From Balanoglossus misakiensis (lineage: Eukaryota > Animalia > Hemichordata): DNA of 64,000 bases. This document shows, piece after piece, positions 12,201-30,942 of this stretch. The translations under genes were made by a program, and so were the position numbers. How positions within the stretch are numbered: the stretch's first letter is position 1; the number at the start of each line of letters is the position of its first letter. The notes below the pieces were generated by a model that made no database searches, was not told the DNA's origin, and saw only the letters and a program-made list of their open reading frames with translations. Where the stretch lies: contig CM082596.2 in assembly GCA_040954595.2 (NCBI GenBank), positions 8,693,124 through 8,757,123 of the forward strand, in the 5' to 3' direction.

Positions 12201-12888
12201 AAAATCAATAGCTGTTACCTCGATTTTGTAATCATTACTATAAGTATCAATTGAATACCTCTACATACACACATATCTGACAAATCCATACTTTGGTCCA
12301 ATTTCTCTCTTTAAAAAAAGTATTTTATTCGAGAATTCAGACAGAAAATAAAATATTTCCATATCTTATGACATGCATTGATCAACACATCTTGAAACAT
12401 GAATATCCCTCCACGACCATCAAAAATATATTTCAAATTCTCTCCATAAATATGCATTATAGGCTTAATGAAATATATAATAACTAACACATTCCCAGTC
12501 ACACAAGATTCCTGGGCATTCCGTGAATTACTACAGAGGTTTTCCAGGAATATTAACAGCGTACAATATCCTTTTTCAGAGATACAGAAATTAATGAATT
12601 CTGTACAGCAACATACATAGTTGATTTTTTAATCATGGTCTTCATATACAGCTGTGAATTTGATTCATCAAGTCTTTTACAGAGTTGCTGTAATTTCAAG
12701 CAGACTTTACGAGAATAACGCATCTTGGAAAACCCTCTTTCGACTCTGAGGTCGAACATGACCAATCCAAAACAATGGATTTGGATCAAACCACTGTGGT
12801 GAAAGGGTTAAACTACTACTAATTGAAAAGACCAGTTACACATGATTCATAGGTGAAATTTGGCAGCTGTGATTGAAAAGAAATGTCA

Positions 12889-13886
12889 TCATGGTCTTTC
12901 ATTTGAATGGATCCTCATGTGCCTCTTCTGATGGCCACTCTGTCTAAATGTTTTCCCACATTCTTTACATGCAAATGGTCTTTCATTTGAATGGATCCTC
13001 ATGTGTTTCTTTAGACCTTCTCTCCATGTAAATGTTTCCCCACATTCATTGCATTCAAATGGTCTTTCATTTGAATGGATCCTCATGTGGCTCTTCTGAT
13101 GGCCACTCCGTCTAAATGTTTTCCCACATTCTTTACATGCAAATGGTCTTTCATTTGAATGGATCCTCATGTGTTCCTTTAGACTGTCTCTCCGTGTAAA
13201 TGTTTTTCCACATTCATTGCATGCAAATAGTCTTTCATTTGAATGGATCCTCATGTGGCTCTTCTGATGGCCACTCCGTCTAAATGTTTTCCCACATTCT
13301 TTACATGCAAATGGTCTTTCATTTGAATGGATCCTCATGTGTTCCTTTAGACTGTCTCTCCGTGTAAATGTTTTTCCACATTCATTGCATGCAAATGGTC
13401 TTTCATTTGAATGGATCCTCATGTGTTCCTTTAGACTGTCTCTCCGTGTAAATGTTTTTCCACATTCATTGCATGCAAATGGTCTTTCATTTGAATGGGT
13501 CTTCATGTGTTCCTTTAGACTGTCTCTCCGTGTAAATGTTTTTCCACATTCATTGCATGCAAATGGTCTTTCATTTAAATGGATCCTCATGTGTTTCTTC
13601 TCATCGCCACTCCATCTAAATGTTTTTCCACATTCTTTACATGCAAATGGTCTTTCATTTGAATGGGTCTTCATGTGTTTCTTTAGACTCCCTCTCCGTC
13701 TAAATGTTTTCCCACACTCTTCAAGTACTAACCATCTTCGGCCCTGTCCACTGTTGCAATCGTGATGCAACATGTCTGATCCACCAAGTTCTTGACCATG
13801 TTCAACATGTTGACTGCTGACATCATCCAGTAGGCTCACTTGAATATGGCCAGAGTGTGCCAGAGTCTGGATTATCAGTGATACAT
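12889..13886 (-). CDS. C2H2 zinc-finger gene copy 2 (type B, 10 finger units); upstream exon at 30568-30446 beyond the Chapaev nest
   Basis: Same acceptor as copy 1 (13886). The first finger lacks its first Cys. The stop is created at a deletion junction. The intron carries the 16.1-kb nest. Confidence 0.8.
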
Positions 13887-16800
13887 CTGTTGGATGATAA
13901 CAAAACAGCTACTTAAATACAGGCTTCAAGCACACTTAATAAGTAACATTACTACTGATTACCAATCACATCGTCTCAGGGTGTCAGGAGACAGATTCCC
14001 TCTTCTGAAACCCCCCCCCCCCCCCCACACACACACACCCTTTAACGTTGCCGGCTAATGGCTGATGCCCATCTTGAGATAGGTTATACTGCAGATAACT
14101 TAAGCAATCATGTATGAGCAGACTGATTATTTGTTGATGTACTGAACTATTGGCAAAGAATGATCACAACAATGGTGTGATTGACTTCCACGTCTGTTTG
14201 AGGGCGATATACTAGTTGGAGTAATAGACTTATTTGCGCGCGAACAAACAGACAATTCAAAATGGCGGCGCCCTCTTGCCATCACTGTGCCTGTGTGTAC
14301 GTGTGTATATTGCGGTTCGTAGTCCTTGCATTTCAAGGGCATATTCACTTTTAATTGCTTGCTTTTGCATAGGTAAAACAGCAAGCATACAGAAACGTAG
14401 GTAGTGAAGTGTGATGATTGTTTCCTTTTTTGAAAACGGATTAAGAAAGTAAGTTCTGTCACTATCATAGAACGTTGTCCTGACTCATATATTCCACTGG
14501 AAAATGAAAACCTTATAACAAAGTGTGACAGTCGTCATAGTAGAAAGCAGGTAGTTGCTACACCAAATGACATCGTTGGTTCTTGCAGTTTCAGTGCATG
14601 CCTCGATTTATTTTACCATTGTTCTGATACGCCCAGAATAGAATTTAATCTAATGTACTTTTACATGATGCATGAGTAAACAAACATGCAGTTGCACTAG
14701 TGACCTTACATATCGGATGACTCTGTATGTATATACCCAATGTATTTTGGACTCTGATTTCATAGGTAAATAAATGATAATAACTGTTCTTATGTGTCTC
14801 ATTTCAATTATTATTAGACTTTATTCAAACCCAATGGACTGCTGAGTGATATTCTCTTGTGACTCAGAGTATTTACACTTAAAATAGATAAAGGCAGATA
14901 TATAGAAGGCAAATGGATACAAGTTCTTGGCAGAGAAACCACGATCACACCAACACTATATTTGTTAGCCTATTGTGGTGTCAAACAAGCAAAAATTTAC
15001 TTGCTGTATAAATGTAAGGGCCTGCTTTATTAGTTGAAAACAGCAATTCTACATATGTATATACAGGTTGTCCTTGTACAGACATTCTAATTAGTAATTT
15101 GTTTTTCCACTCATACATGTGTACCTAAAGTTTACATACTTGCATAAGATTCTTTGCTACCTATGACTTTGTACTTTGAAAAATACTGTACAAGTGGTCC
15201 TTATATAGACACTCTAATTTGAAAATTTCTTTTCCACTCATATTTGCATAGTTTCTGAGTGATTCATTCATTTTATGATGAATTGCCTCAACACCGTTCT
15301 CCCCTAAAAACCCAAGGCCAACTCCATATTTCTGTATCTGAGGCAGAACATGTTCCTCGAGCATGTGAAGCTTGGGTGTTATGGGTACTTGGGGAAAATG
15401 AACTCTGAGATATATAAACAACCCTCTTATGTTAGTACCTGTAAATGAAAAAAAAAAGAATATTGTGTATGAAAGAATTACATGTATGTAAGTATATGCA
15501 ATAAAATGAGAGTGAGGACATGCTGTTTGAAAGTAGTATCTAATTCATGTATGACGTATAATCCACATATGTGTAAAGAATATAATTATAGTATTTTACA
15601 CTATTTTCAATCAACAAGATAATTCAAACACTAGGGTAACAGAATAGTCTAGTTATTTTATACTTACTCAAGGATTCTATTTCATCACCAGTTAATGGCC
15701 TACACAGGTTATATATATTGTGACAGTTGGCAAAGAACATGAAGAGTGGTTGGTACTTGTCATATATATACTCGGCGTCCTCTAAAAGCTCTGGGCAAAC
15801 ATCTGTTACCACAGTTACTGGAGTTAAGCAAATCTTCTCAACATGCTGGGGCTAAACAAAGAGAAAAGACATGAAATAATACTTATTATTTGGCATGAAG
15901 AATGCAACTATGCATTTATAGCATTCACAAAACAGCAAATTTAATGACAAAATCCTAGCCAGTTAATAACCTGTTTACAATCTGCAAGCACTGAAATGTC
16001 ATAAAAAGATCACCCTTTAATAATATTTTGATCCTTGATCACATAAAATTAACCAAATTCTCAATTAGAGACAGCAGTTAATGGTGGTTACATCAGTACA
16101 TCAGTACTAATGTATTTCGACAGAAGGGAAGTTTCTTGAAAACCTCAGACACGTATACACTGACTATGAAGTGAAAAGCATGCATGCAGGATAATTTGAT
16201 GCTGACAAACCTTACAACACCTATCTACATGATTACCAACAAATGAACGCCCATGGTATGCCTGCCTGTGTACTTTTATACTGGCCAATGTCCTATCTAG
16301 TGCTCTAAAACAATAACCTACTTCAGTAGGTAACAAACTGTCTAAATCCCTGGCTTCAATTTCCTAGAAATATCAATGAGATCATGGTTAAAAAGTTGCA
16401 GTCACTACATCTTTAGATAGGAAATATCACTAAACAAGGTATTACTATTTGTAACTTATGTTGAAACTGAAATAGCTGAATATTTTATCAATGTGAATCA
16501 CAGAATCCTAATAAAACATGAACTTCATGCAACCTAGTTATAATTTGTTTTGTTCCTCATCAATTTTGAAAAATGAACACTTCATAAAAGCTATACAACA
16601 GTTCACTATCTTGATCACTAGCTTATAGCGTTTGTGTAATTGTAGGGTTGCAGAATGCTGGTCACCTAATCATTGTATGTTCAGTATTACCCAAAAGATT
16701 ATTACCTTCTCCTCAGCACTACACAGTAACTCGACTCTTTCCTCTTTCAGTCGATGAACTTCACCCAAGGGTACATCGTCTTTGTCATCCTCATCGAGGT

Positions 16801-17316
16801 ACCCAAAGGCGATAAGTTCAGTTTCAATACATTCTGCTTGTTCCCTTAGATCCTCAGACTCAGATGTCAGTTTGAGAACCTACATTATGTGAAGTAATGA
16901 AAATATGTTACTACTTATTTAATACTTTTTCTGTTGATAAACACTAAAAATCTATGCTACATTAGACACAATGGTCAATGACAAACAGATTTTTGACAAT
17001 TATATGAAACAGTATCTCTCAGACAAGATACAAAAGTGATTTTTAGAAAAAAATCCATAGTAACATTGTGATGGAATGTAATTTCACACAAGTTTTATAA
17101 TGTTTGATAACATGTGTAATCTGTATGTAGGTTTGTGTAAAATGTGTAAATATACAATGTACTAATATATAAACTGACTATACACCACTTTCATAAGTAG
17201 CGCCCTCTACAGGCGATGACGTCATTCGGGGGAAAGTTTGAAGAAGCCATTTTGTCAACGGTTTTTTTCTTATGTGGCGCCTGGTCTTTTTTCAACGCGG
17301 TCGCGGGAAGCTGGAA

Positions 17317-19951
17317 ATGGCTGCAAAAATGGTGAGTGCGATTTCAGTTTTCTTCTCAAAGTCCTTATTTGGTTCTGCCAAGTAATTTCAGACTGCCGGT
17401 CACTCATAAATATTCATCGGCGGCATTAATATTCATTACTTAAATATTTACATCCTATTACTTATTCATGTCCTCAACGTACTTGCTCTACGCAGCTCAG
17501 TGATCGAGTTTTCATTCACAACTAATACAAAAGACCCAATAGCTACAATGACACAACATCTGAACCACTAAATACTATTAGCAACTGTTTCACACCTCTG
17601 GTTTTTGTTTCCTTCACGATCTTTTGTTTATTTAACCGCAATATACAAGGGCCAGACAGGGTTACAATTTGTATCACTTTCATTCCATTGACAGGCTATC
17701 CTTTGAGCTACCACTGAGCTGACTGAAGTGGATCATGAGTTTTCAGAACGGTAGTGTGGCAAATGCTGTGCAGCCTAGCTGTAATTGTACAAATGTGAGT
17801 GATTGTTTTTCAGATGCTTCAATAATGGTTACTGCACATGCAAAGTGAGAATTCACATATTTTCAGTAGTAATATGCCTAATTAAAATATTCATTTGTGT
17901 CGATAATTTTTTAATGTTTGAACTACTTTATCCAGGTGACCAGACCCCTAAGTAAATGATTTGACTTTTTTTCTATATAGCTAACTGAGGAAGACATACC
18001 GGGTTCTATTCTATCGAAGGATGTTGAAAAATGCAAAAAGAGTGAACTACAGTTTTGGTTAAAATGCCATGGATTGGTGCACAAGTCGGCGGATACCAGG
18101 GCAACACTCATAACAAGGTCATTATTACTCTTGCTTTTCACTAATATAGTCCGATGTGTTGAATGCTGATATTGATGTTGGTCATTAAATGCTTTGAAAT
18201 ATTTATCAAAACATGTTCCTTTGTATTCCAGAGTCCGGAAGAGGTACCATGATGCCCATACTATTGTTGACCCTGATCCAGGACTGTGTTACACACGGGC
18301 GAAGAGGCTCCGTTGTCCAAGATGTAAAGATGAAGACACTGTTGATAAGACTCAAACTGTGGACATTTCTAGTTATGATGATTGGACCAGTTCTTGTGGT
18401 TCAATACCAACAGGTTTTTCATATGTTCAAATTATGAACCATGTGAAAAAGTCGGGCAAAGTTGTTGGGGATTATGTTGAAAAACCACTTGATAAAGGGT
18501 ACAAATTTTTTTATGAAAATTATGTACACAATGTAAAAAGCTGCAAAACAGACACACATTGTTTAATCAAAGGGAGGTGTTACAGGTCCCAAAAGAAAAA
18601 TGAACCGCCCCATTTTGTCAGCTTGTCACTATGTTCAGTAACAGCTGAGGTTTTTAATGCAAAGTGCTCATGTGTTGCAGGTACTGCAGGACATTGCAAT
18701 CATATAGTGGGACTTTTATATTTACTTGACCACTGCAAGAAATTAAAACTGAGAGAGTTTCCTTTACTGGGAACATGCACAGATAATCCACAAAAGTGGC
18801 ATCGTCCCAGGACTGATGGAATTGCACCTGAACCAATAATGGGATACAATGTATTTAGACCGAAGTATGGGACATCTTCCTCTGGGGTAGCATGTACTTT
18901 GTATGAAGCTAGGGGGAAAGCTGTATTGCAGACATCAAATGATCAATTGAAAGAGCTCAGTAATGATATTCAGGACTTAAATTTGGGTTTTTCTCATTTG
19001 ACCCCCACAACTGATGATACTGATATGGTACCAACAAAAATGGGTTTCCATGTGCCTGTGGGTAGTGTTCTCAGTTACCAGTTGTCCTTAACCGAAGGCA
19101 ATTTTGATGTCCTGTGTAATATTTCCAATGATTTCATTGTAGAATTTATTCCAGAAACCTACCCTAGGCTTCCACTGTCTGCTGTCCCTATCTTCAACGT
19201 TAACGGCCCTTGTATTGAGAGTGTGTCAAAGTTCCTAGATAAACTTAAGCTGAACTCTGATGCATCAGCGCAACTAGAAGAACAGACCCGTGGCCAGTGT
19301 TGTAACCCCTTATGGTTTGAAGCCAGGAAATTCAGATTAACGAGCAGCAAATTTGGGGGGGTTGTTAAAAAAAGACCTTGGGGAAATCATAGCAAATTTG
19401 TACGCAGCTTATTAATCACAAAAGACATGTCGCATATTCCAGCAATAAAATATGGCCAGGATAACGAATCAAAAGCTTTAAAAAAATATGAAGATTTCAT
19501 GATAAGTAGTGGTAGGCAGGTTTCTGTTTTTAGGGCGGGTTTAGTTGTGAACCCATCAATGTCCTGGTGTGGCGCATCACCAGATGCCAAAGTTATTGAT
19601 GAACACAGTGGTGTTGGGATTGCTGAAATAAAATGTGCATATGCATATAGAGATGTCAGCCCCAGAGATGCCTGTAGTGACACAAGATTTTATTGTGAAA
19701 TAGTGGATGGTGTGCCTCGTCTTAAAAAAAATCATAATTATTATTTTCAAGTTCAAGGCCAGATGGGCATATGTGGTGTGTCATGGTGCGACTTCGTTGT
19801 GTACACAAATAAAGGTCTGTTGATAGAGAGAATTAAGTTTGACGTTTCTTTCTGGGAGTCAATGATGGAAAAACTTGTTGGTTTTTACGAGACACATTTT
19901 GTTCCTGTAGCATCTGAAATGATAGATTTTGTAAATATAGATGCAAATTAA
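17317..19951 (+). CDS. ISL2EU accessory protein: SWIM zinc finger + YqaJ/lambda-exonuclease-like domain
   Basis: Exons 17317-17331 (MAAKM|gtgagt), 17981-18117 and 18232-19951 join in phase. SWIM motif CSCVAGTAGHCNH; YqaJ motifs TRGQ..W..AR..RLTSS, YG..NE, GASPD, EIKC, YYFQVQGQM..CDFVVYT. No stops seen. Confidence 0.85.
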
Positions 19952-20029
19952 GCTGAAATGATAGATTTTGTAAATATAGGAGCAAATTAAGCTGAAATGA
20001 TAGATTTTGTAAATATAGATGCAAATTAA
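19914..20029. repeat. 39-bp tandem repeat x3 spanning the YqaJ stop codon
   Basis: CTGAAATGATAGATTTTGTAAATATAGATGCAAATTAAG repeated three times. Confidence 0.9.
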
Positions 20030-21520
20030 ACTACTATTGTACTAGCAGTATGGAATTCAGTCTTGTTTTATTGTTGTCTTAACATGCACAATACAATTCA
20101 ACAAAAACAATTACCATAAGATATCTCATACATGACCCTGTTATTTATTATATTAAAATCTCAGTATTGTCCCGTTATAGCCCCAGTAACACTAATTTTG
20201 AGACACTGTGTCAGTATTTTTTGTTGTTACTCCATATTTCCAAAACATGATGAAAAAATAACAACAGAAATGTTATTTAATAACATTTCTGTTTTTTTTT
20301 TCATCATGTTATACCACTGGGCTTTAATCTGGCACAGAAATGATTGGGTTCTGGAAGAGAGTCAAAAGTGCACAGACTGTCCATATCTGATTGATTGACC
20401 CTGTTAATGACATGGGGATCACAGAATCAAAAATATGGAAATTTTTCACTTTATTTATTGCTCTTTCTACATGGATTCTTTCTGATGCAATCTGCTGAGT
20501 TTCAATAACATCACAATCTGGCATTTGTCCCTTTTGCCCCAGAAATGGTGGGATATTTAGCTTTACATTGATTGGATCAAGTAGATCCTGAATATCAAAG
20601 CCTTTGTCAGCTAGTATGCCATCTCCTGGCTCAAATGAATTTTGCAATAGGCCACTTCTGATGGTCAATTCACGATCTGAAATGCTACCTGTGTACAGCT
20701 GTGAGACAAAGCTGATGTTACCAGCAGGACTGATTCCAATCAGACCTTTCAGTGTGTTTGTTGATTTATAATTTGAATATGATTGAGATTTCAACATTAA
20801 TGATGATGGCATTTCAATCTTTATTTCTGTTGCATCAATGATTATACGTGTATCAGCATATTTCTCTTTGAATGAATCTGGCATTGTGTTCACAACAACC
20901 TGCTTAGATGGCCATATATTTATGGTACCAAGTCGGAGATACAGAAAATTTGACCAGGACAGAACAATATTACTGACAGTGGTGACAGAAACTGAAAATC
21001 GATATGACAGATCACGCTCAAAAAGACCCAACCGTACCCTGCACAAAAAAAGAAAAAACTGATTTTGCACAGACAATTTCCGCGGTCTTCCAACCTTTGT
21101 TCCAGTCTGCTGGTGGGAACTTGCTGTCTGGCGAACATTTACGAGATTTTCACCATTTGGCCCAGGGTTAACATATTTTAGAAGGGAATTAAAAACATGA
21201 ATATTAGGAAAACCTGTGTAAAAAGAAATATCACACTCTTTGATGTTCTGTATTGAAAATTCGGAGTTGCGAAGAGCAATCTCCAGACGATGGTTCTCTA
21301 CAGTTAATTGTTGGATTTTGTTTTTAAGTTCCTCCATTTCTTTGGCCATGGTGTAAAATTTGATAGCAAGTCTCTTGCTGAAAATTTGGTTAATTGCTGT
21401 TATGATAGGGAGAGCCCTCTAGTGGCACCTCCCGCTGTTTGACTTTATCTCCCATGATGCCTTGCAGAACGCCATTTTGTTACCAGTCGCATTTTCTGAG
21501 CAATCTCAATTTGCAATCCG

Positions 21521-22636
21521 ATGTCTTCTAGGCCGCAAAGACTTTGCAGAACCTGTCTTATCGACTTGAAACACCACAAAGGACCTTCCGGACACCTCTG
21601 CAGAGAAAACAAGGACAACTCTTTCGAGATGGACCACAAATCGTCGCCTCAAACCCACGCCAGCATTTCAAGTGTGACACCATGGTCTAAGCCGGACACC
21701 AGCGAAGGTAATCGAGACATTATCAGCCCTAAAAAGCAAATGCTTGAGGCGATTAAGAAGGAAAATGAAGAGCTGGAGATTGAAATAGAATTAAAGAGAG
21801 AACTAGCGAGAAATGAAAAGTTGAAGGCAAAACCGCCTAAAGGTATGGAGGATTCTCAGGACAAGCCCACCATTACATCTCTTCGCCATGATGCTGCTCT
21901 TGGTCGCACAGTCAATAAATTCAAGCACCATACCAAGATGTTTGACACAGATTCCTCAGCATCTTCGTCATCCTGTACAGACTCAGACTCTGCCACGCAG
22001 CTCGAGCAGGGAGGTAAGCAGCACTACAAAACCTTCCGCAAACGCCACAATCGCAAAAAGCCCAAGTCTGGTGTGGCTCGCAGATCCAGCGAGCAAGTGC
22101 GTTACCAAGTTCCATGGCCACACGAATATGCCCACAAGTCCGACAGCAGCATTGATGACCAATCATATGCCACATTGTCAATGCCAGCACTAGTACGTGG
22201 AGAACTATACATCATCCACCATGTAGAGCCACTTGCCACCAGACTTGCCAGAACTGATCACCTTATAGAGCTATTACACCTAGCAGAAATTTACGAATGG
22301 GCCGATGTCAGGGAGCTCCATTGTGCAGTCCTGCGTTCTATCGAGACTGGGGAAAACACATGGCAATATGATTTCACCAAGGAGAAAGCCAGATGTTTAC
22401 ATATCAAGTTGACCAAAGCCCCTATGAGAGCCAACACTAGCTACAAATACAAGACAAACCCCAGATACTGTGCAGACTACCAGCTGGGAAAATGTAAGTT
22501 CAACAATGACCACAACAACCAGGAAGGGATAATGGAACATCACATCTGTCGTTTCTGTTTGCGTATCCGCGACCTTCAACTGTCACACCCACCAAGTGAA
22601 TGTCCATACAAACCAAAAAAGCAAGCCACAGGCTGA
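21521..22636 (+). CDS. Gag-like protein of the YR retrotransposon
   Basis: 371-aa ORF starting just after repeat A1. N-terminal CxxC..H.GP.G..C, a coiled coil, and C-terminal CADYQLGKC..H and HICRFC..HPPSEC zinc-finger-like motifs. Confidence 0.75.
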   Translation: MSSRPQRLCRTCLIDLKHHKGPSGHLCRENKDNSFEMDHKSSPQTHASISSVTPWSKPDTSEGNRDIISPKKQMLEAIKKENEELEIEIELKRELARNEKLKAKPPKGMEDSQDKPTITSLRHDAALGRTVNKFKHHTKMFDTDSSASSSSCTDSDSATQLEQGGKQHYKTFRKRHNRKKPKSGVARRSSEQVRYQVPWPHEYAHKSDSSIDDQSYATLSMPALVRGELYIIHHVEPLATRLARTDHLIELLHLAEIYEWADVRELHCAVLRSIETGENTWQYDFTKEKARCLHIKLTKAPMRANTSYKYKTNPRYCADYQLGKCKFNNDHNNQEGIMEHHICRFCLRIRDLQLSHPPSECPYKPKKQATG

Positions 22637-23239
22637 CTCACCGACACCTACATCCCAGCTGACTTTTCCGCCGCAGTTGCAGATCGCTCTATTGCGAGCT
22701 CCACAGTTGAGACCCCTACCAAACCATCGTCTCTGCATTCAGCTAGATTTCACACAGATGGATCCACTGGACGCGCAATCTACACTACCTCAGCCATGGT
22801 TACCAACCCTTGATTATCAGCACAACAGACACCATTACACAGTCTTCACAACCCACAGTGGGCGAACCTACCTATGTTAGTACAAGTACACACTATTCCG
22901 CCACACTTGCAGCCATCGAATCGTACGTCACTTCTCCCTCAGATGGAATTCGCAATGTCACAGACATATCCGCCTCCATTGCAGCCACTCAGTTCACACC
23001 TGTTTTTCTAATTCAGCCTCAGTTGCAGCTGTACAGGACATGGACACTTTGGACACTGTTGCTTCCGCATGCACCCATTTATCAGACACTGATGACACTA
23101 GTGTTATTGACAGGATCACACTCGCTGCCAATGGACACAGATACATCAACCCTCTGGCTTGCTGCCAAACAGTGCTGTTTGCCCAGTTCTCGCGTATTGC
23201 ATAATGCAATATGATTGAGTTGCTTCCAGCCTCACCCTC

Positions 23240-23520
23240 CTCCCCAGCCTTTGTAATTTACCACCGTAGCACATTTAAACCACTCACTCAGCCTGTTTTA
23301 ACCTAGCGTTTTCGTTCGCTAGTCACCGCCATTGGCCTTGACCCTCTAGGCTTCAGTTTTCACAGCCTCAAGTGAAGGGGGGCCACCACAGCTTCCCTGG
23401 CAGGAGTATCAGACTCGTTGATTCGTTTGCAAGGGGACTGGCGCTCTATAGTATACAAAGATTTTCTTGCCATTCCTGCCACTGAGCGCTTCTACATTAC
23501 TACAATCATGGGCTCTCTCC
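23240..23520 (+). pseudogene. Tyrosine recombinase C-terminal remnant
   Basis: Translation FSFHSLK*RGATTASLAGVSDSLIRLQGDWRSIVYKDF matches the YR boxes H-x-x-R and G-x-W-x-S..Y of DIRS-order recombinases; contains in-frame stops. Confidence 0.75.
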
Positions 23521-26500
23521 CAGGAGCCCTAGCCAGTTTCTCCTCCATTCCTTTCATTTGTCTAAAAAGGGTGGAGGCAGTGGTGGTTTTTTGTAATAGT
23601 TTAGAGTAGTTGAGTTTTCTTTCTTTTTCTCCTTTCTCACATCTTGTTTGGGTAGCTCTGCTTTGGTGGGGTGCTTTGTTAAATCAGTATTGTTCAGTTT
23701 TTCTTGTTGTTACTGGTTATTAAAGCACCTCCAGTTCATGCCAAACAAGATGTGATTTGATTTTGTGCATGCTTGAATTTGTATGTGAACAGTGTGTCCT
23801 TTACCTTTGACCTAGTAGAGGCAATTGTGTAAAATTTGATAGCAAGTCTCTTGCTGAAAATTTGGTTAATTGCTGTTATGATAGGGAGAGCCCTCTAGTG
23901 GCACCTCCCGCTGTTTGACTTTATCTCCCATGATGCCTTGCAGAACGCCATTTTGTTACCAGTCGCATTTTCTCCCACCCTGACGTCATTTCCCTCCCTA
24001 TTAGCTGACTTTTTATACTGTTCAGTTTCAGACTTTGCCATTTGATGATTTTCCTCATCATAGTATTTTGTACTTTGCCTTTCTGTCTTGCCTGTTTCTA
24101 CAGAAAGGTGGGGTGCTTTGTTAAATCAGTATTGTTCAGTTTTTCTTGTTGTTACTGGTTATTAAAGCACCTCCAGTTCATGCCAAACAAGATGTGATTT
24201 GATTTTGTGCATGCTTGAATTTGTATGTGAACAGTGTGTCCTTTACCTTTGGCCATGATTTCAAAACGTGAGGAAGTTTCTTCATCAGCCCTTGCAACCT
24301 TGGTTGATGCATCCCCAGATTCCAACTGCATCATGGTTGTCTGGTTCTCATCCATTTTGCATAACCGCGACAGTTGCAGAGCATTTAATGGCCGACTTGG
24401 CTTAGGCTGAGCTGTTACATGAGGAATATCTTCCCAACACTTAAAAACACACGGGACAGCCCCTGAATGAATCGTCCTCCTGCCACTGAATTGGTGAAAC
24501 TCAATATCATCTTCTCTGAAATGGAGGGAGCAAACAACTGTATGATTTCCAACCTGAAAAATAAAAAAAAATAAGCAATAGTAGAGGGATTATATTTTAG
24601 ATTTAGCATGTTTCCAAAGACTTGATTTGTGTTGGAAAGTTACACAGTGGCTGTGACCTATATTTATATATGTACAACAATTACATATAAATGAAATTTT
24701 CATCTAATTCTTTAGACAGGAATATTTGATTTTTCATTTTTCATAACAGCAAGATGGTGTTTAGGGCTTTAAACAAATCGCTTCCACATATGTTCATTTT
24801 AAGAAATTTAAATACCTTAAAGGACTTGTCTTCATCACGTCTTATTTTTGTCAGCCATATCTTTTTCATTTCTTCATTTTGTGGGAATTTATGATAAGTT
24901 ACAGTACCATGCCCAGGAACAGAAAACTTCCCATAGCTGGTACAGCGTGGCACAGCACAGTTTTTCTTTGTAGCATTCCTGGAGCTCACCTTAGAAAAAA
25001 GCTGAATAAAAAAATAATATGTGATGTAAAAATATATGAAAAAACATCATGGTGGTATCTACAAGTTATGCTGATCACAGCCCTGTCTGGCCCTTGTATA
25101 TTGCGGTTAAATAAACAAAAGATCGTGAAGGAAACAAAAACCAGAGGTGTGAAACAGTTGCTAATAGTATTTAGTGGTTCAGATGTTGTGTCATTGTAGC
25201 TATTGGGTCTTTTGTATTAGTTGTGAATGAAAACTCGATCACTGAGCTGCGTAGAGCAAGTACGTTGAGGACATGAATAAGTAATAGGATGTAAATATTT
25301 AAGTAATGAATATTAATGCCGCCGATGAATATTTATGAGTGACCGGCAGTCTGAAATTACTTGGCAGAACCAAATAAGGACTTTGAGAAGAAAACTGAAA
25401 TCGCACTCACCATTTTTGCAGCCATTTCCAGCTTCCCGCGACCGCGTTGAAAAAAGACCAGGCGCCACATAAGAAAAAAACCGTTGACAAAATGGCTTCT
25501 TCAAACTTTCCCCCGAATGACGTCATCGCCTGTAGAGGGCGCTACTTATGAAAGTGGTGTATACCTTTTCTATAGTTTCAATGTATGTGTTAAAGTTTGC
25601 AGGTTGAAGGACAGGTTCATCCACCTCCCCTGTTGTGCTCAGTTTCTTGTATATTTTCTTGTCAAGTTCTATACACTCAGACTCAAGCATCTTAAAGAAC
25701 ATAAGATATACGCCGAGACTGATGTGCAGCCCTGGCACTGCTACCTGTGAAATAGACAAACATCCAATAATGCAAGTAACTGTCATAAATGGATAAAAGT
25801 CACTTCTGTCTTTTCTTTCCATTAAACAAAGACTAGGAAGAATGAATGCTATAATATTGGAGAGAATACACATTGCACTGGAGAAGAAGTCAACAGACCC
25901 CCCTACATCATATATATAGTTGCATTTCATGTGGGTTGGTTAGACTGTGTGATATAATAAGGTTGATTATAGCACATTGCTTTAAAATTGGCAGTATGTA
26001 CTCACTCTTTCTATTGGGATACTTATGAGTGGAGTGCGGACACAGTTGTTGTACAGTTTTGCTTTCTTCAACACTCCACCACCATCTTTTTCATATTTAT
26101 TATGGTCAGAGATGATTGATTCCAAGGTCCTAGCCTGGACTTGAGGTCTGTCTTCAGGTACCATGGAACATATGTCCTTTGTTGTCAGGCACCACAAACA
26201 AAAGTGTTTTCCTTGGATAAAAAAATAGATGAATCTGATCATAACAACTAACTTACTCATGAAATAGTATGCACCTTAACAGAATAACAAACAGGTTCAC
26301 AACAACATCAAAGACAGTTAACCAGAATAATGATGACTGACTGTGTGCATGTACATGTGACAACATTTTTACAATGTACATCTTACAATTATCAAGCACT
26401 TACCATTTGGTCCACTCAGTCCATACAATTTGGTTAGATATTCATAATCACCCATTACATGCACCTTGATTCTGAAATCTCTGCATAAACAATAGACAAA

Positions 26501-29030
26501 AAAATGTAAGTCAGTATGTGCTTAATAAATGATTGAAACTCAATTTTAAAATGTGTATAGAATAGGTGCATGTAAAAGAGGGAATGAATGGGCCAAACAG
26601 TTGATGATTACAGAAGACAGGTATGAGACAGGTAGGTAAATTGGTGATGTATGAGTCACTAGCTTACAGGTAAAATGTGTAAACTATTTTAGTATTAACA
26701 TGTTAAGATGTGTTCTATGATATATTTATGGTATCTGCAATTTCAGGCTACATCACCAATGGATGAATATATGAGGGGGACTATCTAAACCTGTTATGTA
26801 TTGCCCATACAAGCAAGGGTCAGATCAAACTGTTTGATTAAATACAGTATGACTTGAAATTTGGATAAAGCATACCTCCATTTAGAACCATCAAGATGGT
26901 TTACTTCAGACATTAGATGTTCAGTTGCTGTTTGGAGGTTGTGGTAGGTATCAGTGCCGCGATACATGTTTAGGATTATTGTGCTCTTGATGGAATTTGG
27001 GTGTTCAACATTGCACACCTCCAAACACGTCTTCATTAGATCGCCTCCTTTATCACCACCTACTTTAATCCAAATCTCTTCTTCTGGTATTACTGCTCCA
27101 TGCCACGTCAATTTGTCAGACCTGAATTGAAAGAATTTTTAATCAGAGGTGAAGATATTAAATTGTATGCATCAACTGTTCAATCACTTTGAGAGATTGG
27201 ACATTTATTAAATATGCTTCCACAACATTGAGCTATTCTGAAATGTATGTATGTATGTATGTATGTATGTGTTTTATCATTGTTTTCAATTGATCTCTTA
27301 GTGAATTATATTACAAATACAATTACAATCAGCATTACCTATCTAGTTCCTGAAGGTATCTGAAACAAATACTCTCCAAGTTGGTGCTAATGCTTGGTGC
27401 CAGTCTACATTCAGTGCCAAGTTTTCCAGTCACTGGATTTTTCACATGGAACTGAAGGAGTAGGTTCTTGGCTGACACTTCAATTTCTCCAAGTAGACTC
27501 TTTGCTTCTTCCCTATCCCTATTCTCTCCAGGAAAATTTATTTTCCATTTTTTCAACCACCTATGAATACAACAAGTACATAATGCAATGGCAAATGTAA
27601 ACATGAAGAAAATACACATGAGAGTGATATCATCATGACAACTTTTGGTTATGTTGTACTCATGAATCAGTAAATCTGTAAAATAAATTTTGCCTTTTAT
27701 ATTTCATGGTTAATGTCAATGTACCTAAATTCAAAACATACCTCCGCAATTTTCTCAACTTGTTCCATGGGATTGAGAGGTCTGCTTTGACTGCGAGTCC
27801 TGCACCAGGAGGGATTTGTGGTGTGGTCTTGAGAACATTGTTTGCTCTCCTCCATTCAGTCTGTAGTTGTGTTTTGTTGGAGAGATCATCCTCCCCACTC
27901 AAAACCCTCCTTTGAGACTCGATGTGTTGAGCTCTGCTTCTTTTTGTTGTTGAAGATGCAGTACTACTCTTTGTCTTAGGGTGAGGTGTATATGTCATAT
28001 GGAATGGCTGGTTGTAGCAATGTAAATGTAGAAAGAAAAAAAAGTATTTACTAGTATGTAACAATTCATATTTATAATATGAAAGACACATGATGCAAAT
28101 GCAAACTGATTTCACAATGTAGATAACTGTAGTGTTAAAATCAATGTAGATTTATGAAATGATACTGCCAATTGATACGTGAAAACACACTTACCCCTCC
28201 TTTTGTTTTGAATCGTACAGGTGCTCCTTTCCTACTATCATCTGTTAGATCAAGCTTTCGCTTTACACACTTAGTTGTCAGGTCTTCAAATCCAGGGGTC
28301 TGTTCAATGTTTGGAGTGCCAAGCAATATTTGGACAGCCTTATGTACGTCATGATGAGATTGTTCTCTCCTTACAATTGGAGCAGTCTTGATCTGTGGTG
28401 GAGTTTCTACTGGTTCTACTGGTGATGGTTGTGGCAAGAGGGCATAATCATGCTCAACAAAGATTGGTACAGGCGTGGACTTAACCTGACAATTCTTAAC
28501 ATGATCTTTCAATTCACTAAGTTTAACAATAGCTGTACACCCTTTCCACGCATAGTCACAGGATAGCTTTAGGTCACTAATCAAATTCATCAAGTGCACA
28601 GGAATAGGCAATATACTTGTGGGTGTGATGTCTTTCCTGCATATTGGGCATGTTGGCGAGCTATTCACCCAGTGTTTTATGCATGGAGCACAATAGATAT
28701 GATGACCCTCACACATTAGCTGTATGGGTTCATCAAAAACCTCTTTGCATATTAGGCATTCTAAATTTGCTGTTATTGAATTAAATCTTTCCACACATAA
28801 AGGAATGTGTGTCTTTAATGATTTACAAGCTTTCATTGTAATTTCCTGTTCTAAACTTTCCACTAAATTTCTGTCTACACTGGTGCTTGCTTGTTTAGAA
28901 TTAAATATATCATTTTCAGAAGCACTGGAACAAGGTGTACACTGGGACCTTTGCTTACTACGTTTCCTCCCCTTCTTACTGTACCTGATACACACATGGC
29001 ATTCACCAGTTCTTGAGTGTTTGCACCATT

Positions 29031-29405
29031 CATCGTCGTAAAACCACGACCTGTTTACGGCAACTGCTACGCGCTACCGCCAACAGGCCGTGGTGGATTT
29101 GGAAGGTTTTCGCGGATCCCAGCGTCAGTTCCAGCAGCCAGACAAAGGAACCAATCAGAGAGCCCGTCTCATAAAACTGCATAACTTATTTAAATGACAG
29201 TGCAAAATGGCGGATTTAAAGCTGACAGCAGCCGAAGAGCTCGCGATAAAACGACTACTGATTGGCTAATTCCAATGTCGTTTCTCATGAATAATTCATT
29301 AGACTACGTCCTAAATTCCGGGGTTCCCTACTGTAATCTGCCAGAGCCCGTTTTTTGCGTAGCTCCGCGGAGCGGAAACACGGTCGGCTCTGGCTTGCGA
29401 GAATG
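29031..29405. mobile_element. 375-bp non-autonomous DNA element inserted in Chapaev exon 1 (possibly AcademH-like)
   Basis: Direct repeat GCACCATT at 29023-29030 and 29406-29413 (9 bp if the next C is counted). Imperfect inverted ends CATCGTCGTAAAACCA / CATTCTCGCAAGCCA. Removing it restores the frame IAEWC-KHSRTGECHVC. Family assignment is tentative. Confidence 0.8.
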
Positions 29406-30942
29406 GCACCATTCTGCAATTACTATTTTATGGCTGCAAGATTTTCCAGACAAAGTTGCTGATTTCAAACGTCCAAGTGTCTTTTTGCATTTGTGGCAGA
29501 AATTAGCTGGGTAAGTGGCACTGCTTTCCGGACAATCGATTCCAAAATAAATACGTAAATCCTCCTGAAAATCTGCACATTTATAAATGCGAGACGATCC
29601 TCCAGACGAGCGAATTTTATCTCCACAAATGCGACAACTACTATTGAGGACAAGTTGATGAAAATCAAACGTTTGAGCCATAATTAAAGATGAACTATTC
29701 GGAATTATCGGAAACGTAAACAAATGCCGGCTACCATCAGCTGTCGGCAGAATTGAAAAGGGCGCTCTTTTTACGTAATACGTAAACAATCGATCGTTAC
29801 CATGGAGCTACCGCGGCCGAGAAAGTCTGACTGCGGCCTGGTGCAAACACTGCTTGAACTTTCACACAATGAATCACACTTCACAGTAAAATTACGTTGC
29901 ATATCATAAAAAATCTTTTTAATGATAAAATGTGGCTTAAAATACATACCGTCGATCTAAAAAATAGTGTCACTTCCGGGTAATGGTCATGGTTTTGGCA
30001 AAGGGTTACGTTGACTTCGCGTGAAATATTTCATACAACATTGACGTCGAGCGACTGAACCTTTGACCCCTGAAACGTCCGAGAGTTTACGATGTTGAAA
30101 CGATTATCTTCGTGCTTGACTATGCTTCCATATTTGGAAAAATACGGCAAAATGCCGGACCTGTCCGAAGGAATCCGAAATGGACGCCATCATAGTCTCG
30201 TTCGATATTACAAGTTATCGCGTTAATATATGAGAACTACCGTGCGTTGGTTGTGTTTTCTCTACTCCAATCAGTATGTCGCCCGCACGCGATAATAACA
30301 GACGTGCTTCAAGGGAACACCCCCTTTCAATTTGTATACATCATCTTTCTCCAAAGGGAAAGCTTTGTTCATGCTGTCTTTTGTTTCAAGAGACAAGAAA
30401 CAGCAGGACTAGTAATATGTAACAAAAGAGATTATGCTTGCTTACCATCAAAGGATTCAGCACCCTCTTCAAATCGATGTGTTACTTTACTATGTGATGA
30501 TTCCAACAGTCTGCCAAGTTCATGTAACTTATTTGAATGTCTGTACTGTGTGCACACTTCAGAACATTCTGGAAAAGTAAGGCATGAGTATTAAGTTACA
30601 TAAGGTGACAGTCTATATTTTCTTTGTGCATGACCATTCCCAATAAACAACTATGAATAATGCAAACATTACATTAATCCAAAACCCCTGACTTGCTGCA
30701 CCAGGGTTTACGTTTAAAATTTAGAGTATACGGGGATTACCGCGGGTAGTTACCATATACATGTAGTTTATACATTGTTGTTGAGGTGGTTGATTTCTTT
30801 AAAAATTACACAATTTACAACACCCCTGCAAGTATGTGGACAGCAAAACTAGATTGTGTCACCAGTCACAGTGGATTAGAGGGTGAGCAGTGAAAAAAAA
30901 AACATGAACCATGATGGTTTGAGGTGGCGTCTGGAGGGAAAC

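Follow-up and report, generated by a model that had tools for sequence, protein, structure and literature searches.

The DNA studied here is a 64,000-nucleotide stretch of contig CM082596.2 from the hemichordate Balanoglossus misakiensis (the window, to whose positions all coordinates refer). Between 14189 and 30306 it holds a Chapaev DNA transposon that inserted recently and whose ends share a terminal block and an inner block, with the inner block lying farther from the terminus at one end (the long end) than at the other (the short end). This layout is common to most of the Chapaev families that we examined, and, judged from sequence, it is likely that a RAG1-related enzyme pairs a short with a long end, similarly to the recombination of antibody genes. 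Contigs came from three runs (X1, X2, and X3) of one sample, of which X3 had little coverage and was left out of the results. The parts of the two ends and of the target site duplication (TSD) are as follows.

14185..14188: left TSD copy, CTTC, one of a 4-bp pair; the empty-site joint runs from 14184 to 30307 with 4 shared letters
14189..14198, plus strand: short-end terminal block, 10/10 identical to the other end and fitting the CACnnnnGTT consensus of 20 ends
14199..14223, plus strand: short-end inner block, with the best but weak site of the shared-motif matrix at base 15 from the terminus
30263..30287, minus strand: long-end inner block, with the best motif site at base 24 from the terminus
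30288..30296, minus strand: the 9 extra bases of the long end, ungapped in an X1 contig running into a different flank
30297..30306, minus strand: long-end terminal block, the 5' end of the element, from pairwise comparison of the ends
30307..30310: right TSD copy, CTTC, the other member of the 4-bp pair, also supported by the empty site

Ends and insertion of the window element

The sequence-only reading had placed the ends at 14189-14223 and 30306-30263, and both coordinates and sequences match the letters of the window. As it had described, the CAC-initiated 10-bp terminal block is conserved (14189-14198 versus 30306-30297, 10/10), the 25-bp inner block is identical at 21 of 25 positions, and the spacing of the inner block differs by exactly 9 bp. 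The terminal 10-mer occurs nowhere in the window beyond the two element ends, and among 300 random 60-mer pairs drawn from the window as a control, the best ungapped 25-mer match was at most 17/25. The flanking CTTC/CTTC match stops at 4 bp, with no fifth base, and the empty site is present in X1 and X2 contigs, which join 14184 to 30307 with 4 shared letters. Since the transposase gene is read from the minus strand, the element has its 5' end at the long end (30306) and its 3' end at the short end (14189). The element proper measures 7354 bp, and about 8.8 kb of the 16.1-kb span consists of nested elements.

The 9-bp difference is not a private indel of this copy. Over 29950-30306, a 1479-nt contig from X1 differs from the window by two substitutions, with no gap, and it then enters a different flank, keeping the long end ungapped at a second site. 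At the left end, the alignment of a contig carrying four substitutions begins exactly at 14189, and end counts show the short end to be kept; these two contigs possibly represent different copies. An assembly artifact is ruled out by the empty site and the second flank. Contig depth is not copy number, and we therefore claim only two insertion sites. The second site shows that the asymmetric form did transpose; with window-family copies ~99% alike, a need for asymmetry does not follow. An exact scan of metagenome contigs for the end pattern of this family gave 0 matches, and no internally deleted derivative keeping both ends was found among the joints listed, from which its absence does not follow.

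Transposase gene and superfamily assignment

The gene and its exons, all on the minus strand, are arranged as follows.

15161..29681, minus strand: Chapaev transposase gene of 11 exons, with ten GT-AG introns and no internal stop, supported by tblastn of homologues
29681-28195: exon 1, interrupted by a miniature inverted-repeat transposable element (MITE) at 29405-29023
28007-27742: exon 2, a helical region at the position of the RAG1 nonamer-binding domain (NBD), then the start of a region like the domain for dimerization and DNA binding (DDBD); model confidence (predicted local distance difference test [pLDDT]) 88.7
27560-27339: exon 3
27121-26876: exon 4, with the first catalytic aspartate, D554, in the motif K-x-GGD-x-G
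26480-26404, 26211-26006, and 25744-25565: exons 5, 6, and 7
16879-16706 and 16363-16211: exons 8 and 9
15851-15668 and 15438-15161: exons 10 and 11

A conceptual read-through that skips the MITE and the introns yields 1029 amino acids (aa) with a single terminal stop. Its domain order is a Chapa zinc finger, a RING plus a C-terminal zinc finger, a helical region, and a DDE core containing D554, D624, C643/C646, L713-H714, H962-x4-H967, and E988, the last assigned through profile alignment to RAG1 E962. The Chapa motifs, following published definitions (PMC1131882), are H-x3-L-x3-CRxCG, P-x2-FC-x2-C, and W-x2-H...C-x2-C. A Chapaev transposase with a RAG1-type N terminus had been proposed from the sequence, and it is borne out by matches to PF12560 (E 7e-5) and RING (E 5.5e-8) and by a profile of 19 relatives that matches mouse RAG1 102-384 with E 1.6e-26. 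With the RAG1 core, the same profile has negligible sequence similarity (0.9-4.8 bits). The nearest named proteins are those of the hemichordates Glandiceps (68% over the searched exon) and Ptychodera, with other marine invertebrates next; the relatives are "uncharacterized" proteins of Glandiceps, Ptychodera, Antedon, Diadema, Branchiostoma, and Sycon.

The reported hallmarks of Chapaev are CAC...GTG termini, a 3- to 4-bp TSD, an N-terminal Chapa finger, RING in some subgroups, and a DDE core with C(2)C, LH, and H(4)H motifs (PMC4079192, PMC4411706). The window element shows every hallmark tested (termini, TSD, Chapa plus RING, and the DDE-core motifs), and we assign it on its sequence to the RING-bearing Chapaevs (CMC/CMCT clade) by these published features. 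Chapaev3, with its 3-bp TWA TSD and transposase of ~500 aa, is ruled out by the 4-bp TSD and the 1029 aa with RING. Membership in Transib or the RAG-like (RAGL) transposons is ruled out by the 4-bp TSD and the lack of a RAG2-like (RAG2L) gene. The duplication stops at 4 bp in the window and in 15/15 TSD-flanked loci of related families, all of which were picked on a 4-bp match. For RAG2L, the plus strand of the outer arms has no unexplained open reading frame (ORF) of at least 120 aa, and the minus strand has transposase exons and short frames only; the non-genic arms measure 625 bp upstream and ~970 bp downstream of the transposase gene. The label "RAG1-like transposon" given by the sequence-only reading should not be taken to mean RAGL or Transib.

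Offset of the inner motif across Chapaev families

Relatives were confirmed in 75 of 86 candidate stretches from metagenome contigs and in 1 of 11 from genome contigs, for a total of 76 loci, most of them too short or broken for both ends; none of the 4 + 8 candidate stretches from viral contigs was confirmed as a relative. Ends were defined blind to inner sequence, by CAC/GTG, terminal identity, the 4-bp repeat, and homology boundaries between sibling copies. Both ends were found in nine families besides the window. Six are TSD validated (L017, L075, L025, L032, L043, and L052; 15 loci at 14 distinct sites, L058 being a repeat of the L032 site and receiving one count at the family level), and three have 9-10/10 terminal identity with no matching TSD (L001, L016, and L041). 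With the window included, all 20 ends start with CAC and have TT at positions 9-10, and 19 have G at position 8. Further CAC/GTG pairs with 8-10/10 identity and a 4-bp repeat were dropped as chance or other elements because they did not recur in siblings or lay outside a closer 10/10 pair.

The best ungapped left-right inner match falls at offsets of -9 (window), -10, +10, +10, +11, +11, +12, +8, 0, and -19. An offset of 8-12 was thus seen in 8 of the 10 families, whereas 300 shuffles gave 2.4 on average and 6.2 at most. A de novo Gibbs search returned the motif GGACAYTTA with a score of 203 versus 109-125 in 8 shuffles. It starts at base 17-18 at one end and at 28-29 at the other in L001, L017, L016, L032, L043, and L052, and in the window it starts, weakly, at 15 and 24. 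No motif position moved with leave-one-clade-out matrices. The asymmetry first noticed in the window extends to most of the related Chapaev families when left and right ends are aligned: a 9-12 bp offset of GGACAYTTA is found in 7/10 families, or in 6/9 without the window, where it is 10-12 bp, and 3/10 families do not fit.

When ends were not picked by hand, the 76 loci together gave 34 occurrences of CAYTTA after CACnnnnGTT in 371 distinct 50-mers, 8 of them at 20-21 and 16 at 30-32, and three control anchors gave 7, 3, and 6 scattered matches. As the motif was derived from the same loci, only its positions count as a test. The spacer bases between the terminal block and the motif are weakly conserved. 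On the sequences compared, a one-turn-offset end geometry is apparently conserved across Chapaev families, with exceptions.

A recombination signal sequence (RSS) is described as a heptamer plus a spacer of 12 or 23, which puts the nonamer start at base 20 or 31 (PMC10629977, PMC1131882). The ACA-equivalent of the Chapaev motif lies at 19-20 and 30-31. Where the motif starts is a choice of register; robust to that choice are the difference of 10-12 bp and the distances, which come to about two and three turns. The Chapaev ends share with the 12/23 system two conserved blocks whose spacers differ by about one helical turn (9 bp in the window and 10-12 bp in six of the nine others), whereas the A-rich nonamer ACAAAAACC is not matched, the inner motif being GGACAYTTA.

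In a tree of cores anchored by a hidden Markov model (IQ-TREE, LG+G4, midpoint root, no RAG1 outgroup), in which sibling L021 stood in for L075, whose core was too short, the window groups with a Ptychodera protein (support 100), L001 falls among or beside Sycon-type proteins (grouping support 44), and the eight other families form one clade (support 98). Core identity is 30-36% between these three deep lineages and 40-71% within the eight-family clade. In the window and L001, the 5' end is the long one; in L017, L016, L032, L043, and L052, it is the 3' end. One polarity flip suffices, and the asymmetry outlived it, as would be expected more from a constraint acting on the two ends as a pair than from one on the promoter side.

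Several loci showed other features. A candidate 5' end (CAC...GTT) at L020:66-95 has ACAAAAAG beginning at base 20, like a 12-RSS nonamer, and its other end is off the contig. A second CAC-ended pair in L045 (8169 and 15736), with a 4-bp repeat and long imperfect terminal inverted repeats (TIRs), encloses the Chapaev copy; it is possibly another CMC-type element that was the target of the Chapaev insertion. A reversed short end of the L052 family at L053:13181, 247 bp past the long end of the L053 copy, suggests an adjacent or nested second copy. The sole genome-contig relative (L076), which has neither end, is a Chapaev core on a 2.3-kb contig of a Deltaproteobacteria metagenome-assembled genome; it is likely to be DNA of the host animal that was binned with the bacterium, and not a bacterial element.

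Predicted enzyme and proposed pairing of unequal ends

An AlphaFold2 model of the homologue P0151 (pLDDT 76.5) has RAG1 as its best structural match (Z 28.4, root mean square deviation [rmsd] 3.5, 455 residues aligned), followed by BbRAG1L (Z 26.5), HzTransib (25.4), and P-element transposase (12.7). Several alignments extend back, at higher rmsd, to model residue 356, which corresponds to RAG1 391, the start of the NBD. The core of the model carries a long helical insertion at residues ~694-823. A RAG1-type catalytic core fold is predicted on this basis.

We propose that a RAG1-like transposase dimer would bind and cut at the terminal blocks with its cores, while the helical domain at the RAG1 NBD position would bind the inner GGACAYTTA-type motifs. 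With its two positions one helical turn apart, the inner motif would keep facing the same side of the DNA, and the NBD-like domain, as a dimer that pivots as in RAG, could favor synapsis of a short with a long end without RAG2. Such a preference need not be absolute. In RAG itself, the NBD dimer is described as pivoting and enforcing the 12/23 rule (PMC10629977). We lean modestly toward this account, in which cutting occurs at the CAC termini and an NBD-like dimer holds the inner motifs and favors one short plus one long end.

In its favor, given a chance per family of 0.164, p is ~0.001 for 6/9 families (window excluded) and ~0.008 for 4/6 TSD-validated families. Several points weigh against it. 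These p values are optimistic in that they assume independent families and that the 8-12 and 9-12 ranges were set after the data were seen. Of the nine comparison families, eight fall within a single clade, and five derive from one assembly prefix; this leaves only three deep lineages and makes the p values too favorable. In the family of L075, L021, L049, and L018, with four TSD-flanked insertions, the TIRs are perfect over 20 bp and the long position alone has a good motif; L025 (scoring 27/28) is close to symmetric, or degenerate, and L041 is ambiguous (offset 8 by pairwise match, -2 by matrix). Among the seven offsets, the 9 bp of the window is the smallest, and the motif scores weakly there, at 1.1-1.9 bits with leave-clade-out matrices. 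The inner motif shares only ACA with the nonamer, without its A-tract. Mouse RAG1 alone is reported in a review to lack a 12/23 preference (PMC8355894). The model of window exon 2 alone (pLDDT 88.7) aligns with RAG1 395-447 at rank 6 of 48,161, with Z 3.5 and rmsd 4.3 over 51 residues, which is within the noise of the tool; Foldseek with this domain gave a nonsignificant E of 9.3, phmmer gave no RAG match, and the GRPR/K motif is absent from the exon-2 region in the alignment, where a conserved S-x3-T-x2-RR-like pattern is found. The predicted structure is suggestive of an NBD-like identity for this domain only because position and register are the expected ones.

Selection for asymmetry could also operate without a RAG-type pivoting NBD, if the motif is a transposase-binding site that, in the manner of unequal subterminal repeats in hAT or piggyBac transposons, aids a higher-order assembly, perhaps through the Chapa finger or another domain. 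Hermes needs unequal ends, via binding by its BED domain (PMC10368747), and the weak exon-2/NBD match, the long helical core insertion (P0151 ~694-823), which could support other oligomers, and the lack of a motif at the short position in some active families all speak for such an assembly. It accounts less well for a single inner motif at each end, placed at either of two discrete distances separated by one turn, which matches RSS geometry, and for an enzyme collinear with RAG1 from the Chapa domain through the C-terminal domain; we consider it unlikely, though a serious competitor. Were the offset instead an ancient indel passed on with no function, nothing beyond the terminal 10-20 bp would matter, which has been suggested for most RAGL-B elements of invertebrates. 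Reliance on the terminal 15-17 bp has been proposed for invertebrate RAGL (PMC7204232), the L075 family spread with its perfect TIRs, and the 9 bp shared by nearly identical window-family copies is uninformative on selection. However, the motif and its two positions persist though spacer bases and 30-70% of core residues changed, and end polarity flipped at least once, which makes a neutral relic improbable.

We give even less credence to the inner motif as a host transcription factor or promoter element, with a position incidental to cleavage. The motif is short and AT-rich, its CACTTA resembles an NK-homeodomain site, and GC-rich, promoter-like sequence follows both window ends. In contrast, the motif is present at both ends and keeps a fixed distance from the terminus, not from the gene; depending on the family, the short form lies upstream or downstream of the gene. 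We retain the pairing of a short with a long end by a RAG1-like dimer as the preferred reading. Whether Chapaev goes further and enforces a true 12/23-type rule alone, with no RAG2, via an NBD-homologous dimer reading another inner motif, is more doubtful; this is plausible, but we would lean somewhat against it.

Comparison with known systems

The window element resembles RAG1/RAG2 with 12/23 RSSs in its CAC start, in inner blocks ~20 and 31 bp from the cut, in a homologous N terminus (RAG1 102-384, E 1.6e-26), and in the predicted core fold (Z 28). It differs in having no RAG2, a 4-bp rather than 5-bp TSD, a 10-bp terminal block, GGACAYTTA instead of an A-rich nonamer, no GRPR/K, and negligible core sequence similarity. 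Transib5, Transib2_AG, TransibN1-3_AG, and subgroup I Transibs are similarly single-protein elements, with ends that differ by about one helical turn (PMC1131882, PMC9435367), and the earlier statement that some Transib ends show such asymmetry agrees with published RSS12/RSS23-like ends (PMC1131882). Unlike the window element, Transib makes 5-bp TSDs and lacks both Chapa and RING domains; its relationship to Chapaev transposases is described as only a distant one (PMC4411706). Among RAGL transposons, PflRAGL-A has bipartite asymmetric TIRs with a 10-bp difference (PMC10629977), AanRAGL has 4/13-bp spacers and thus the 9-bp difference of the window (PMC9435367), and amphioxus ProtoRAG has a 27/31 asymmetry, with spacer length affecting activity (PMC8289069). 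RAGL transposons, however, carry RAG2L and mostly a CCGHC C-terminal tail, neither of which the window element has, and the TSDs of PflRAGL-A and AanRAGL are 5 bp, unlike its 4 bp. Hermes, a hAT element, is alike in needing left-right asymmetry for activity but belongs to another transposase family and has many short subterminal repeats over hundreds of bases (PMC10368747), whereas the Chapaev ends have one motif at two distances one turn apart.

No description of bipartite, one-turn-asymmetric Chapaev ends was found, in keeping with the sequence-only reading, in a literature search whose range stopped short of the 2007 Repbase Reports account and of Panchin and Moroz 2008, which may describe them. 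The word "Chapaev" is absent from the main text of PMC8355894, PMC10629977, PMC7204232, and PMC9435367; the accessible part of a 2026 preprint on the RAG1 N-terminal finger covers Chapaev proteins and does not treat Chapaev ends. A 12/23-like end geometry in Chapaev is thus apparently undescribed, and the element itself is a new member of a known superfamily. In the Chapaev3 ends of Merrow, compared by eye in parts 1-2 of 3 of Fig. S6 in the supplement of PMC4079192, a low-complexity, T-rich block shows an apparent offset of 9-10 bp in two species and of 0-1 bp in two lampreys.

The origin of the 12/23 rule is debated, the proposals being a Transib seed, the TIRs of RAGL-A, or an ancestral Transib/RAGL trait (PMC8355894, PMC10629977, PMC9435367). 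If Chapaev ends share the two-turn/three-turn geometry, then either it is older than the split between Chapaev and Transib/RAG or the same fold reached it twice. If a RAG2-free 12/23-type rule is true, V(D)J recombination would use an asymmetric pairing geometry that predates that split and was kept throughout animal evolution while motif sequence and end polarity changed. The families provide a natural test panel, being young, single-protein, and RAG2-free; the offset in them is 9, 10, 11, or 12, both polarities occur, and some families appear to be exceptions. With this panel, it becomes testable whether the pairing rule needs RAG2 or an A-rich nonamer.

Nested insertions and genomic surroundings

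Three insertions lie within the element.

29023..29405: MITE, 383 bp, in exon 1, with an 8-9 bp direct repeat; a MITE-free copy is seen through an X1 joint from 29022 to 29406
17179..25563: ISL2EU/Harbinger-like DNA transposon with ~500-bp TIRs and THAP, DDE_Tnp_4, and YqaJ; a copy without it is seen through a joint from 17178 to 25560
21340..24254: second-level insertion, 2.9 kb, within the ISL2EU-like element; a copy without it is seen through a joint from 21339 to 24247

Nesting at the locus is three levels deep, and X1 contigs without each of the three insertions exist. The MITE disrupts the transposase reading frame of the window copy, and the family also has MITE-free copies. Its ends are CAT...ATG, the depth of its contig is far above the surroundings in all three runs, and it appears to be hAT-like. 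The ISL2EU-like element (8.4 kb) has 500-bp TIRs that are 98% identical, a 591-aa YqaJ-domain ORF, and a THAP plus DDE_Tnp_4 transposase; it lies directly past the splice donor of Chapaev intron 7, with the GT kept intact. The second-level insertion contains split direct repeats (21344-21497 equals 23820-23973, and 23665-23812 equals 24107-24254), a 378-aa gag-like ORF, and a short recombinase-like remnant, and by its motifs it is probably of the Ngaro/DIRS type.

The Chapaev element sits in a cluster of C2H2 zinc-finger genes with 84-bp repeats (856-2247, 12807-13862, and from 36287 onward), the nearest zinc-finger array being ~280 bp from the element.

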